From the IMG/VR virus record IMGVR_UViG_3300042013_000056, positions 118,860 through 182,859 of that record: 64,000 bases of DNA. The stretch is one strand, 5' to 3'. A program made the translations under genes and the position numbers. The DNA comes from a virus. The stretch's first letter is position 1. Every line of letters begins with the position of its first letter. This document shows, in pieces, positions 5,903-20,221 of the stretch. The notes under the pieces were generated by a model. The model was given only the letters and a program-made list of their open reading frames with translations. It had not been told where the DNA came from and did no database searches.

Positions 5903-5978
5903 TGGTGCAGCCAACGGGACTCGAACCCGTGCTTGGAGAATTTAGAGTTCCCTGCCTTGCCAACTTGGCTATGGCTGC
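5903..5978 (-). tRNA. Amber suppressor tRNA (anticodon CUA)
   Basis: GCAGCCA/TGGCTGC acceptor stem, anticodon arm GGGAA-CT-CTA-AA-TTCTC, canonical T arm, ACCA end. Confidence 0.9.
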
Positions 5979-7964: not shown

Positions 7965-8360
7965 TCAGCTACGTGCGATGGTTGAAGCCAGACTTTTATC
8001 AAACTGACCAGCGTAGTTGCCGTTGAGGTATTGCATTACCGCTGGGACACCGACCAAACCATTAGCTGTAATCAAATCACGGATTTGAGATTCACTAAGT
8101 TGTTTCGGCAAAAGTCCAGCGAGAACTTGGTTTTCGGTTTCAAGCTTTGGATTGGCACGGTGTTTCAGACTTTCATCGTTGGACTTGATCAGTTTCTTGA
8201 CCGCATCAACAACTTGAGCTTCTGTGTAAACCTTGCCAGTACGCTTTTCAACTGTTTCGATTTCACCCAAAAGCAGGTTGAGAATCGCAACTTCAATTGC
8301 GCGGGATGGGTCACGTCGGGCATCCAGTTTCTGGGCACCGATTGTTTCAATCAAACTCAT
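7965..8360 (-). CDS. GatB/YqeY-domain protein
   Basis: Helical pattern ILNLLLGEIE...VKKLIKSNDESL...ENQVLAGLLPKQLSESQI typical of YqeY. Confidence 0.75.
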   Translation of the reverse strand: MSLIETIGAQKLDARRDPSRAIEVAILNLLLGEIETVEKRTGKVYTEAQVVDAVKKLIKSNDESLKHRANPKLETENQVLAGLLPKQLSESQIRDLITANGLVGVPAVMQYLNGNYAGQFDKSLASTIARS

Positions 8361-10347: not shown

Positions 10348-10470
10348 TGGTGCAATGTCGCGGAGTCGAACCACGTTGTATCTCACTGACTGGGCCAATT
10401 TATCCCAGCGTTTAGGAAGCTATCCGTTGGCAACTAAATCAGGTCAACAATACAAGACCATTCACAAAGC
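10348..10470 (-). ncRNA. tRNA-like RNA (T arm, acceptor and CCA, but no D or anticodon arm), ~123 nt
   Basis: 3' end CGTGG-TTCGACT-CCGCG-ACATTGC-A-CCA; 5' GCTTTGT; long internal TTGTAT/ATACAA stem. Confidence 0.6.
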
Positions 10471-12194: not shown

Positions 12195-12276
12195 TGGTGG
12201 GTTATTGGTGGAATCGAACCACCGACCGTATCATACGTCCTGTACAAGACAGAATGAACAGCCAAACATGTAACCC
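12195..12276 (-). tRNA. Aberrant tRNA-like gene (Tyr-like, irregular D and anticodon arms)
   Basis: Good T arm, acceptor and ACCA; long variable arm; anticodon register ambiguous (TTGTACA). Confidence 0.5.
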
Positions 12277-13732: not shown

Positions 13733-14019
13733 GGTTCAGTCCGAAGAAGTGGATACTTCTCTTTGAAGCTTTCATGTTGACCACACCCGGAACACACATG
13801 AATGTATTTCGGTGGGTAAGTCAGGTAAGCTTCACCGGTTGCTACGAACTGCCCAACACAATTATTATGATCGGCGTGTACCTGATACGTTCGAACTTCA
13901 ACCTTGCGTTCTGTTAACAGTGCAGCTCTATTACGCTGAAACCGTTCAATCGCTTCTTCTCGGTTCATCATTTCCCACGTTTCTCCACAAGAGACTTTGC
14001 AAAATTGCAAGGCGAACAC
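13726..14019 (-). CDS. Hypothetical CxxC protein (true start probably near 13971)
   Basis: HVCSGCG zinc-ribbon-like motif. Confidence 0.5.
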   Translation of the reverse strand: MFALQFCKVSCGETWEMMNREEAIERFQRNRAALLTERKVEVRTYQVHADHNNCVGQFVATGEAYLTYPPKYIHVCSGCGQHESFKEKYPLLRTEPC

Positions 14020-14384
14020 ATGGTGGTTGTATTGCTGACATTATCAGCACCACCCGCACTTCTCGCTAACGTATGATCATGAGTAAACAGAATCTCATTG
14101 CCCTTTTTATCTTTGCCCCAGAGGTTCAGATGATATGGAAAATCATCAGTCTCTCTGACAGGACGTTCCACCGCATAGTAAGACGCGTGCAGCCCACATG
14201 CAGAACATTTGGTGCTACGATAAAACGTTCTTAACCGGGTTCCGCGACTGAACAGCTTGACTTGTTTACCAAACAGTTCAGTTCTGGGTTGATCCTTTGG
14301 GGAAGCTCCGACGACAGTTTTCTGTCTAGCCCGAATTTCCTTGATGTCAACAACACCTATACGATGATAATCTTGCGGCTTCAT
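13968..14384 (-). CDS. HNH endonuclease-family protein
   Basis: CSACG...FTHDHTLARSAGGADNVSNTTTMCSPCN; has its own promoter. Confidence 0.8.
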   Translation of the reverse strand: MKPQDYHRIGVVDIKEIRARQKTVVGASPKDQPRTELFGKQVKLFSRGTRLRTFYRSTKCSACGLHASYYAVERPVRETDDFPYHLNLWGKDKKGNEILFTHDHTLARSAGGADNVSNTTTMCSPCNFAKSLVEKRGK

Positions 14385-14414: not shown

Positions 14415-14447
14415 AGCATACCAGCATTGGAACAGAATGTAAACATT
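14415..14447 (-). promoter_or_regulatory. Early/middle-type promoter
   Basis: AATGTTTAC-N18-TATGCT. Confidence 0.75.
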
Positions 14448-14458
14448 TGAATCGAATT

Positions 14459-14655
14459 TGGTCGTGGGGGCCGGACTCGAACCAACGACCTTCGGCTTAG
14501 TTGCCGATGCTCTTAAAAACCGATAACCGCCAATGTGTCATCCGGAAAGCAACGCCCATATCCACAAAACACTTCTACTGGCATCTAGCGTCTACTATAT
14601 CGGTCGCGCACCGATGTTCAACATTCGAAATTTAATCCAACTGAGCTACCCCACG
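14459..14655 (-). ncRNA. tRNA-like RNA with a 123-nt insertion in the D loop and a 6-nt anticodon loop
   Basis: CGTGGGG-TA-GCTC-AGTTGGA[insert 14513-14635]GAGC-A-TCGGC-AACTAA-GCCGA-AGGTC-T arm-CCCCACG-ACCA. Confidence 0.75.
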
Positions 14656-14764
14656 TTGCGCCATGGTTTTAGATTCAGACCCATGAACTGAATATTGCCT
14701 TGCGGCTACCTGATACTAAAGTCGGGGTTCCCATTAAAGGGGTATCCAACAATTGCATCAAATT

Positions 14765-14849: not shown

Positions 14850-14925
14850 TGGTGGGGTTCTTTGGATTCGCACCAACAACTGCGAAGTCGATGCCACGCC
14901 GCTTTCCTAATTAAGCTACAACCCC
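14850..14925 (-). ncRNA. Aberrant tRNA-like RNA (irregular anticodon arm, TGCGAAT T loop)
   Basis: GGGGTTG acceptor, D stem GCTT/AAGC, ACCA. Confidence 0.6.
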
Positions 14926-15081: not shown

Positions 15082-15172
15082 TGGTGGGGAACAGAAGACT
15101 TGCACTTCCAACCTTGGCTACTGGCCGACTATACCGGCGCTCGCCATGCTCTGCTAATTGAGCTAATTCCCC
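15082..15172 (-). ncRNA. tRNA-like RNA with the anticodon loop replaced by an extended hairpin
   Basis: GGGGAAT/GTTCCCC, GCTC/GAGC, TGGC-GAGC-GCCGG-TATAG-TCGGC-CAGTA-GCCA, T loop TGCAAGT, ACCA. Confidence 0.7.
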
Positions 15173-15333: not shown

Positions 15334-15412
15334 TGGTGGGAAAGGATGGAATTCAACCATCGTATTGCAGTGTCCAATGTTAACTGCTGCTCTTACATTC
15401 AGCCACTTTCCC
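15334..15412 (-). ncRNA. tRNA-like RNA with an 11-nt anticodon loop
   Basis: GGGAAAG/CTTTCCC, GCAGT-TAACATTGGAC-ACTGC, ACCA. Confidence 0.7.
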
Positions 15413-16361: not shown

Positions 16362-16426
16362 CTGGATACCATTGGTCTTTTCAAAGATTAAAGGTTTGAA
16401 TGATTTATGGTTTGCTGTTGGTATCC
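16362..16426 (-). ncRNA. AACAGCA-motif stem RNA, copy 3
   Basis: GGATAC-C-AACAGCAAA...AATG-GTATCC-AG. Confidence 0.65.
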
Positions 16427-16432
16427 AAAACT

Positions 16433-16600: not shown

Positions 16601-16658
16601 CTAGTTGCACTTTTGCTTTCAAGCCAATATGAAATTTAAGTGTTTGCTGTTGGCAACT
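16601..16658 (-). ncRNA. AACAGCA-motif stem RNA, copy 4
   Basis: AGTTGC-C-AACAGCAAA...AAAAGT-GCAACT-AG. Confidence 0.65.
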
Positions 16659-16663
16659 AAAAC

Positions 16664-16746: not shown

Positions 16747-16825
16747 TGGTGGGCCAAAGCGGGATTCGAACCCTACCCTCATCCACTCTCTGGGATGCGC
16801 TCTATCCGCTAAGCTACTCGGACCC
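16747..16825 (-). ncRNA. Aberrant tRNA-like RNA (8-nt anticodon loop, extended acceptor stem)
   Basis: CATCC-CAGAGAGT-GGATG; canonical T loop; ACCA. Confidence 0.65.
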
Positions 16826-18275: not shown

Positions 18276-18300
18276 AAAAAGGGAGCCAATGGCTCCCTTT
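18276..18300. terminator. Intrinsic terminator
   Basis: AAAAAGGGAGCC-A-TGGCTCCCTTT-type perfect hairpin with A/T tails. Confidence 0.75.
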
Positions 18301-18324
18301 AAGAAAATCGATGCAACAACCGAA

Positions 18325-18453
18325 TCAAATATCCGGGCGTTCGTCTTCTTGGGAACCAATTGTAACGGTTTTGCCGAAATTAAAGGCAAAGCGATCCTGT
18401 ACCGGATATCCAGCATTTTTCAGAGAGCGATTTGTGATAGTCATTGACGACAT
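18325..18453 (-). CDS. Small (42 aa) probable late protein
   Basis: MSSMTITNRSLKNAGYPVQDRF..., between a CTAAATA promoter (18492-18498) and a terminator. Confidence 0.45.
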   Translation of the reverse strand: MSSMTITNRSLKNAGYPVQDRFAFNFGKTVTIGSQEDERPDI

Positions 18454-18537
18454 GGCTTTAATTCCAATTTGTAAAACAGTTGATGTACTTGTATTTAGCG
18501 TTGTGTTTTTGAAAAATCATCGGTTTTCGAAAATAAT

Positions 18538-18823: not shown

Positions 18824-20221
18824 TTACCAGTCGTAACGCGGAACGTTCAGAGTGTCCAACATCATAGACAGTGGGGTCACTTCTGGAACATCAGTTGCCG
18901 CCAGAATCGATTTCATGATTGCTGGACTGAATCCAGTAACCATCGCAGTACCACCAACACCGAAGCTAACTGGCACGTTACCGAAACTGGAGTTCATGTT
19001 CCAGAAAATGATGTCCGGGCGTTTGTAGCCAGCGGCTGCATACATACGGTCAATCATTTCGAACGCTGAATCATTTTGGAAACCACGGTCCACGCTATTG
19101 AACTGCATGTCAGACCACAACAGAATCTTGGTCGGCATGTCTTCAACCGGAACTTTGTGTTTCACCGCCGATTTCAGAATCAGTTCGAACGACTTTTGCA
19201 GGTTGGTAGAACCACCCCACGGTGCAGATTTTGTCTTGCGAACACGTTCGGTCAGTGTCTTGCAGTCCGACAGGTCCACCCATGTAGGGTTACTATCAAA
19301 CGTGATGAACTGATCCTTGAAGATGCCCTTGGAACGCTCTGCAACGTAGATACCCAGAGATACCGCCACATCCATACAGGTCAGGCCCGGAGACGCGTTG
19401 TAGTTGCTCATAGAGCCCGACACATCGACGATACCAATCAGGTTCTCTTTCGAGTCTGCAAGGTAATCTGGCAATGCTTTCCACTGCGCATCAGCAACAC
19501 CCTGAACACCATTCAAACCGCGAATGACATCGTAAGGGAAGATCGCACCGGCATTGATGGTGGTTTTGCCTGTAGCAAGACCGTCAACCCATTCTTGGTA
19601 CGCTTCTGGTGCATTACGCTTGAATGCCTTCTGGTAGTTCTTCGACGCAACCGATGGAAGCTTGCTGAAATCGATTTCGTTCCACTGCTGGGCACACATC
19701 TTCTGTTCAACAGTGTTGGACAGCTTGACGATCATTTTGCGGTAGTTGCGTTCGGTCAATTCGAACTGATTCATGAAGAACCGAGAATACTTCTTGCCTT
19801 CACGCGGCATCCACTTCGCACACAGACCGTTATTGTCAAGCAGAGCCTGAGCAACGATTTCAGTGATAACGAAGTCCAGTTGCTCACTGATACCGATCAG
19901 TTGCCACAGGTCATCCCAACGACCAACTTCCGGGATTTTTGCGATGATACGCGCTGTGGTGTGAATGTGTTGTTCACGGGCGATTTGCCCCATCAACGAA
20001 CGGAAAGTCTGACGTTCACCAGCACCACCGCGAATATCACGAACCCACAACAGTTGACGAACTGCCAAATCGGCATCTTCGTTGTACGCAGCACGGAACT
20101 GGCTCGACAGGTCAAGACCACGGGCCGAACCGATCTTGGCGAACAGATCGACGTTTGCATTGAAGCTGGTTTTCTGTGCAGCCATACCGTTGGTGGTACG
20201 AGTCATGTTAGTTTGATTCAT
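18824..20221 (-). CDS. TROVE/Ro60-like RNA-binding protein with C-terminal vWA domain (DUF2828-type)
   Basis: Start trimmed to ATG 20221 (promoter lies at 20260-20292). N-terminus TTNGM...VDLF, RDIRGGAGER, GRWDDL, AKWMPRE; vWA MIDAS DVSGSM. Confidence 0.8.
   Translation of the reverse strand: MNQTNMTRTTNGMAAQKTSFNANVDLFAKIGSARGLDLSSQFRAAYNEDADLAVRQLLWVRDIRGGAGERQTFRSLMGQIAREQHIHTTARIIAKIPEVGRWDDLWQLIGISEQLDFVITEIVAQALLDNNGLCAKWMPREGKKYSRFFMNQFELTERNYRKMIVKLSNTVEQKMCAQQWNEIDFSKLPSVASKNYQKAFKRNAPEAYQEWVDGLATGKTTINAGAIFPYDVIRGLNGVQGVADAQWKALPDYLADSKENLIGIVDVSGSMSNYNASPGLTCMDVAVSLGIYVAERSKGIFKDQFITFDSNPTWVDLSDCKTLTERVRKTKSAPWGGSTNLQKSFELILKSAVKHKVPVEDMPTKILLWSDMQFNSVDRGFQNDSAFEMIDRMYAAAGYKRPDIIFWNMNSSFGNVPVSFGVGGTAMVTGFSPAIMKSILAATDVPEVTPLSMMLDTLNVPRYDW

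Follow-up and report, generated by a model that had tools for sequence, protein, structure and literature searches.

An apparently undescribed family of tRNA-shaped phage RNAs with a conserved domain in the D loop

A 197-nt RNA gene in a phage tRNA array

The stretch of DNA analysed here (the window, 64,000 nt) comprises positions 118,860 to 182,859 of the viral record IMGVR_UViG_3300042013_000056, that is, the last third of a single contig of 182,859 nt. The contig belongs to a 183-kb T4-like phage, and the minus strand of the window carries an array of more than 32 tRNA genes. Within this array, between a tRNA-Asn gene and an HNH endonuclease gene, lies a 197-nt RNA gene that runs from position 14655 to 14459 and occurs as a single copy in the genome, based on a check of the whole record. 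The ACCA encoded at its 3' end is directly followed by AATT, as are the true tRNAs of the array. The nearest cultured relatives, judged from a neighbouring protein (60% identity), are the Pseudomonas phages Milchi and Astolliot, which form a genus of large myoviruses (PMC11780129), and from this kinship we infer a Pseudomonas host for the phage of the window. Neither ARAGORN nor Rfam made a call on the 197-nt RNA, with no Rfam match at the gathering cut-off or at loose E-values; in GenBank, the homologue in Milchi is labelled 'tRNA-OTHER' and that in Astolliot bears no label. The main features of the locus are the following.

14459..14655, minus strand: whole gene of the putative tRNA-mimic RNA, type A, 197 nt, ending in the encoded ACCA before AATT (sequence, 17-member family, single copy)
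14637..14655, minus strand: 5' part of the tRNA frame, with the acceptor strand (C1), U8-A9, the D-stem strand GCTC, and A14-G15 to G18-G19 (sequence; acceptor covariation; compensated 15-48 pair)
14513..14636, minus strand: D-loop insert, which exceeds a standard loop by about 122 nt and whose exact borders are arbitrary (D loop of 127-133 nt in 17/17)
14459..14512, minus strand: 3' part of the frame, with the D-stem strand GAGC, anticodon arm, variable loop, T arm, acceptor strand, A73 and CCA (sequence, covariation)
14497-14502, minus strand: 6-nt non-decoding anticodon loop
14662..14692, minus strand: H-type pseudoknot in the 5' leader, which stops 6 nt before the RNA (helix 2 covaries)
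13968..14384, minus strand: HNH endonuclease gene, 138 aa (linked to the RNA, not co-evolving with it)
14415-14443, minus strand: sigma70-like promoter motif of the HNH gene
18824..20218, minus strand: gene for a DUF2828/DUF7788 (phrog_850) protein with a Ro60 fold (predicted structure)

The leader pseudoknot was matched by a regular expression in 11 of the 19 loci scanned, with its helix 2 in five sequence versions, and was seen by eye in L232 and L097; in most members it lies 4-7 nt ahead of the 5' end of the RNA. A late-promoter-like CTAAATA motif is found 1.0 kb upstream of the RNA in the window and 65-430 nt upstream in several of the homologues.

The array contains a number of other unusual elements. 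Aberrant tRNA-like genes with odd anticodon loops or D arms occupy positions 14853-14925, 15104-15172, 15334-15412, 16750-16823, 12198-12270 and 10348-10430 of the minus strand, with counterparts in Milchi and in loci L003-L005. An amber-suppressor tRNA (CUA anticodon; 5903-5978, minus strand) is present in Milchi and Astolliot as well; TAG ends 14 of the 178 long ORFs, which gives no clear sign of recoding. Small conserved structured spacers stand between tRNAs at 14697-14760 (minus strand), in the leaders of L004, L252 and L314, in the trailers of L097 and L316, and upstream both of L316 and of the L234 HNH gene; they include a long-stemmed GNRA hairpin, alternative pseudoknots and a candidate HDV-like (theta) ribozyme. 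A short ORF at ~18290-18500 (minus strand) follows a late-promoter-like motif; its core is conserved in nucleotide sequence, a terminator-like hairpin stands ahead of tRNA-Arg, and the arrangement is conserved in L001 and L003-L005. Genes for an alginate lyase (PF08787; 8382-9095, minus strand) and a YqeY-like protein (7965-8360, minus strand) also lie inside the array.

A family of 17 RNAs in two types

We found 16 distinct homologues of the RNA, Milchi and Astolliot included, in loci around the Ro-like gene, in contigs with relatives of the HNH gene and by DNA pattern scans; with the window copy, the family has 17 members. All of them are 196-202 nt long with a D loop of 127-133 nt. Because 16 distinct homologues keep both the frame and the length of the insert, the 197-nt RNA is not a product of chance. 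The members split, with full support in a tree, into type A (nine members, including the window copy) and type B (eight members, including Milchi and Astolliot). Identity between the types is 0.76 in the frame and 0.55 in the insert, compared to 0.51 for a shuffled control of the latter. Both types share one locus, where they have been swapped between phages beside near-identical HNH genes. Cassette exchange of divergent alleles at one locus is common among conflict genes.

The distribution of the family is narrow. Searching 50,697 phage records by blastn gave no full-length match to the window copy, and the type B search returned Milchi and Astolliot only. The DNA pattern scans recovered three true members in IMG/VR, one new and two known members in JGI metagenomes, and no member in 185,579 prokaryote genomes. 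No RNA of the family was seen beside ~45 further, more distant loci that encode the Ro-like protein, nor in the tRNA region of phage pf16. Based on its absence from the prokaryote genomes, from these distant loci and from pf16, the family looks confined to a clade of phages, that of large T4-like Pseudomonas phages. Among the matches listed, a loose type-B pattern and a pattern with a 61-91-nt gap both gave only chance or tandem-tRNA matches. Two matches to the core motif of type B alone proved unrelated to the family. The literature search returned no description of the family; an unnamed earlier listing is possible among the 10,006 viral RNA candidates of PMC10690425, to which no comparison at the level of sequence extended. 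The 17 sequences represent a real and conserved family of phage RNAs, apparently undescribed in the RNA catalogues and literature searched.

Read on the minus strand, the window copy has a tRNA frame that is complete, as the sequence-only reading had claimed, and that is kept in the 16 homologues. A perfect 7-bp acceptor stem (C1-G72) is followed by U8-A9 and by a GCTC/GAGC D stem that encloses a 130-nt D loop in place of the standard 8-9 nt, leaving ~121-123 extra nucleotides, in agreement with the 123-nt insertion first proposed; its length is conserved in the family. The anticodon stem has 5 bp and, as described earlier, a 6-nt loop, AACTAA; the variable loop is AGGTC (5 nt), the T-arm loop is TTCGAGT and ACCA is encoded. 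The family has the cloverleaf of a tRNA (7-bp acceptor; D, anticodon and T stems; CCA), and two-sided, compensatory changes are found in the acceptor, anticodon and T stems of both types. The tertiary core is likewise present, with U8-A14, G18/G19 with the T loop, and the 15-48 pair. U8, A9, G10, A14, the D-loop GG and the core of the T loop are kept across the members as invariant columns, while the Levitt pair G15-C48 has changed to A15-U48 twice, in L313 (type A) and in L095 (type B), a switch indicative of a folded L shape. Sixteen of the 17 members have C1-G72 and A73, and 15 have a G-U wobble at 50-64. These patterns of substitution indicate that the tRNA frame is under selection. In a free minimum-energy fold, the window copy loses the D stem, and the cloverleaf costs 4.1 kcal/mol.

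The anticodon loop and the D loop set these RNAs apart from decoding tRNAs (RF00005), in which the anticodon is conserved and lies in a 7-nt loop that has U33, and the D loop has 7-11 nt. The anticodon loop is 6, 7 or 8 nt long in seven, seven and three members, respectively, and U33 occurs in 2/17; the D loop is 127-133 nt. Since the anticodon loop is 6-8 nt long, mostly lacks U33 and has no conserved anticodon, the RNA is not a decoder. The resemblance of the 3' half to initiator tRNA that had been noted earlier is not specific: in a comparison of isotypes, Pro, Met and Ile tRNAs tie at 41 of 58 positions.

The insert is a conserved domain, as judged from its covarying helices, and has the following elements.

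14617..14629, minus strand: hairpin H1 (TTCGA/TTGAA) with a CGAA motif, in type A only, weakly supported
14599..14615, minus strand: hairpin H2, whose GCGCR loop is invariant in 17/17 and whose 3-6-bp stem has changed pairs
14587..14590, minus strand: linker CGCT, which may form a pseudoknot of 3-4 bp with the loop of H2 in type A
14519..14582, minus strand: long irregular helix H3, base GCC/GGT (covariation)
14543-14558, minus strand: GGG/YCC hairpin capping H3

The insert is not unusually stable: relative to shuffled sequences, its folding energy has a z of -0.47 in the window copy and a mean z of -0.29 over the 17 members. Since it is no more stable than shuffles, the word 'structured', which the sequence-only reading had applied to it, rests on covariation. 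The fold of the domain probably depends on tertiary contacts or on a protein. H2 is present in every member with differing pairs, its loop ending in GCGCR, and the hairpin originally read as ATCGGT/ACCGAT is supported by different pairs in the homologues. After H2 comes a linker with GTA and then the long irregular helix, which starts with CC and ends with GG just before the D stem. The GTGT/ACAC pairing proposed earlier is a stretch of this long helix and not a conserved helix of its own. The TTAAA/TTTAA closing helix is invariant in seven type-A members but absent in the other 10, and has no support from covariation. The evidence for H3 is stronger in type B, in which 5/5 pairs of the inner helix have changed on both sides and 97.5% are paired, than in type A, in which 3/9 basal pairs have changed on both sides and 80% are paired. 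Two further pairings are candidates. The H2 loop and the CGCT linker of type A are paired in 86% of cells with no two-sided change. In all eight type-B members, the H3 tip (TCGCG) and the anticodon loop (CGCGA) are complementary, with five invariant pairs and no two-sided change; this complementarity is not kept in type A. No antisense target of at least 13 nt for the insert was found in the phage genome.

Neighbouring genes, rival readings and a proposed function

Two neighbouring genes offer possible partners for the RNA. The HNH gene is adjacent in 16 of the 17 members, even after swaps of gene order, as would be expected if the RNA were a guide, cofactor or antitoxin of the nuclease, although 11 members were found by way of this gene. 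However, the RNA types are scattered on the HNH tree (five changes, compared to a shuffled mean of 5.9), and the RNA gene has therefore been exchanged as a cassette; types A and B are found in pairs beside near-identical HNHs, no such RNA occurs at distant HNH homologues, and the HNH gene has its own promoter motif. A guide matched to its HNH is thus unlikely on the sequence evidence, and the whole set of HNH-linked roles extremely so. The second candidate is the DUF2828 protein, whose gene lies 4.2 kb upstream of the RNA and whose alignment-based predicted fold (pLDDT 91) resembles Ro60 with a TM of 0.63-0.65 (E 3e-10). If the RNA were a Y-RNA-like partner of this protein, the insert would be the Ro-binding module and the tRNA frame the effector. 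The proximity of a Ro60-fold gene, the lack of any YrlA or YrlB above cut-off in the genome and a CGAA in the 5' portion of 15/17 inserts are in line with such a partnership. By inspection, however, the full motif GNCGAAN(0-1)G is present in only 2/17 inserts and does not lie in a terminal helix, and the 197-nt RNA is absent beside ~45 other loci of the DUF2828 family, which carry RNAs with a stem and ACAGCAA instead. We consider this partnership improbable. Because ACAGCAA is enriched in the array of the window (seven sites compared to 1.8 expected, p 0.003) and missing from all 17 family RNAs, the Ro60-fold protein probably has other partners, namely separate ACAGCAA RNAs.

The intergenic ACAGCAA sites of the window (one of them ACAGCAG) lie on the minus strand at 16602-16659 and 16363-16427 and at sites 18080, 12567, 10754, 9454, 9247 and 6094; several adjoin a 7-8-bp stem closing a small RNA, and they are conserved in L003-L005. 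Beside the DUF2828 genes of other phages, we noted tRNA frames of 113-131 nt with a hairpin and a CAGCA module at the anticodon arm (L006:11886-12009, L009:4278-4393, L040 with four copies, L047-L082 and L088:21954-22191).

Other explanations concern the RNA itself. It might be a scaffold or tether with a housekeeping role in infection, for example by self-assembly through the palindromic GCGC loop or by joining two proteins of phage or host; its tRNA frame would then be only a tag for processing and stability, as by analogy may also hold for T4 species 1 RNA. In accord with this, the 4-nt palindrome GCGC is invariant in the hairpin loop in 17/17, the H3 tip of type B could reach the anticodon loop in all eight, and the RNA is present beside 13/13 of the closest HNH-marked loci looked up. 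Yet the GCGC and tip-loop pairings, being invariant, carry no covariation information, the second is confined to one type, and the conserved elbow and acceptor identity suggest that a partner reads the frame itself; a scaffold seems to us rather unlikely. That same acceptor end, with C1-G72 and A73 in most members and an encoded CCA, could instead mark an aminoacylated carrier, with Pro likeliest (in the loci retrieved, tRNA-Pro accounts for 36 of the 48 tRNAs so marked), which would feed a non-ribosomal enzyme docked by the insert. Bacterial ProRS also requires G35/G36. These determinants are absent here, as are the G3-U70 of Ala and any conserved transferase neighbour, which makes a carrier decidedly improbable. 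The earlier suggestion of a novel, removable intervening sequence fares no better; on this view a nuclease would excise it and the RNA ligase of the phage would seal the ends. Removal of ~122 nt would restore a normal D loop, the phage encodes a T4 Rnl1-type ligase, and a loose, mostly G-U bulge-helix-bulge pattern fits seven type-A members; the pattern is missing at that place in the other 10, however, the D stem would not be rebuilt, the product would keep a non-decoding loop of 6-8 nt, and the constant length of the insert and the motifs within it are in keeping with a working domain. The group I model (RF00028; core P3-P7) has no match in the phage genome at E<=1, and the ends of the insert are U/A-rich where group I needs a terminal G; neither group II (RF00029) nor a domain 5/6 was found in the phage genome, which also lacks an EndA-type splicing endonuclease (PF01974) and RtcB. 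The PF01974 splicing endonuclease is not known from bacteria. Among the 50,697 phage records there is no intron-less allele (the best match is 80%). Without an intron core, a conserved bulge-helix-bulge, a splicing endonuclease or such an allele, a removable sequence is very unlikely; the first reading's view that neither a group I/II intron nor a tmRNA fits is borne out, since no intron model matched and no tmRNA was called. Finally, the aberrant anticodon loop and the unexceptional stability of the insert might suggest a pseudogene with a random insertion, which the sequence-only reading had tied to a lack of conserved homologues. The 16 homologues, their fixed length, the compensatory changes in frame and insert and the intact CCA refute this, and a pseudogene is scarcely conceivable.

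Instead, the RNA is most likely kept intact as a stable tRNA mimic that carries a functional domain, judging from the conservation of its sequence. The earlier proposal of a tRNA chassis with a cargo domain agrees with what we found: frame and insert each show conservation and covariation in 17 phages, the insert has a fixed length and the loop is non-decoding. The RNA would be transcribed within the phage tRNA operon, considering its position and the CTAAATA motifs. Host RNase P and 3' nucleases would then excise it like the neighbouring tRNAs, as in established tRNA processing, because it still has a 7-bp acceptor stem, a T arm, the elbow nucleotides and an encoded CCA. The frame should fold as the tRNA L, with the 120-nt domain predicted to project from its D-loop corner; given the loop sizes, it translates no codons. 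A host factor that binds or attacks tRNAs may recognise the frame, and the inserted domain could add grip or tether a second partner, giving a decoy or inhibitor. Phage tRNAs are established agents of counter-defence, in which the known mode is the replacement of a cleaved decoding tRNA, and Milchi has many putative anti-defence genes (PMC11464382, PMC11780129, respectively); we found no precedent in the literature for a non-decoding phage tRNA decoy. Of the readings weighed, a counter-defence job for the tRNA mimic, in the conflict over tRNA between phage and host, is the likeliest, with a chance in our estimate somewhat short of even. More broadly, phages may use the D loop of tRNA to present folded effector domains made of RNA, with the 197-nt RNA a non-decoding, CCA-ended inhibitor or decoy of tRNA-targeting defence that has two interchangeable alleles and is the founding cultured example of a wider class; we offer this tentatively and, taken as a whole, regard it as rather doubtful.

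For T4 RNA C and RNA D, tRNA-like stable RNAs of T-even tRNA clusters, the function is listed as unknown (PMC9697503); two cultured phages (Milchi, which infects Pseudomonas poae, and Astolliot), two natural alleles and covariation make the question directly testable. If the RNA is a decoy, it would represent an RNA-only mechanism of counter-defence distinct from tRNA replacement. The family also shows that 120 nt of extra domain can be accommodated at the elbow of a natural tRNA frame, which matters for tRNA-scaffold engineering. Annotation tools miss or mislabel the family RNA.

Comparison with known systems

Several known RNAs share features with the family. Like tmRNA, the family RNA has a CCA-bearing tRNA-like domain with a large inserted region, but tmRNA has its anticodon arm replaced, has no D stem, and carries G3-U70 and a tag frame, none of which applies to the family RNA. 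Membership of tmRNA was rejected for want of a tmRNA call, G3-U70 and a tag reading frame. As in tRNAs with introns (bacterial group I/II, archaeal bulge-helix-bulge), removal of the interruption would restore a cloverleaf, and archaeal bulge-helix-bulge introns can occur in the D loop; in contrast to these, the family RNA has no ribozyme core, conserved bulge-helix-bulge or endonuclease, and the product would be non-decoding. YrlA and YrlB (RF02553, RF02565) similarly combine a tRNA-shaped module with a second module near a gene for a Ro60-fold protein. However, YrlA is circularly permuted, without a free CCA and with the Ro-binding stem at the anticodon arm (PMC4201824, 10.1101/312249), whereas the family RNA is a linear tRNA with an encoded CCA and the module in the D loop. 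With no match to the family model and a different architecture, YrlA/YrlB were set aside as relatives. The tRNA-Lys of T5 that acts against PARIS (PMC11464382) is, like the family RNA, a tRNA-array gene with an altered anticodon loop, but counter-defence tRNAs of the T5 type are of standard size, decode, and replace a cleaved host tRNA, while the family RNA is non-decoding with a 120-nt domain.

The placement of an insert in the D loop is not confined to the family, as unrelated tRNA frames with D-loop inserts of 30-60 nt were found in a scan of IMG/VR, so that the design recurs. Such frames are present in L328, L334, L343, L344, L345, L349, L353, L358, L363 and L364, and further in L381, L385, L393, L403, L405 and L406; some keep a normal anticodon (Phe, Gly, Ile).

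The closest analogue is T4 species 1 RNA (rnaC, about 140 nt, NC_000866), a late RNA of unknown function (PMC9697503). No match of the family model R1 to rnaC was obtained and its D-arm anatomy differs, and thus we do not count it as a member. Both are small RNAs encoded at a T4-type tRNA cluster, rnaC being stable and the family RNA predicted to be so. In each, the 5' and 3' ends form an acceptor-like stem that starts with C, a T arm is present, a stem with a 6-nt loop takes the anticodon position, and the D-arm position holds a large additional domain. However, rnaC has no GCUC/GAGC D stem, no D-loop GG and a mismatched acceptor, whereas the family RNA keeps the whole cloverleaf and holds its domain inside the D loop.
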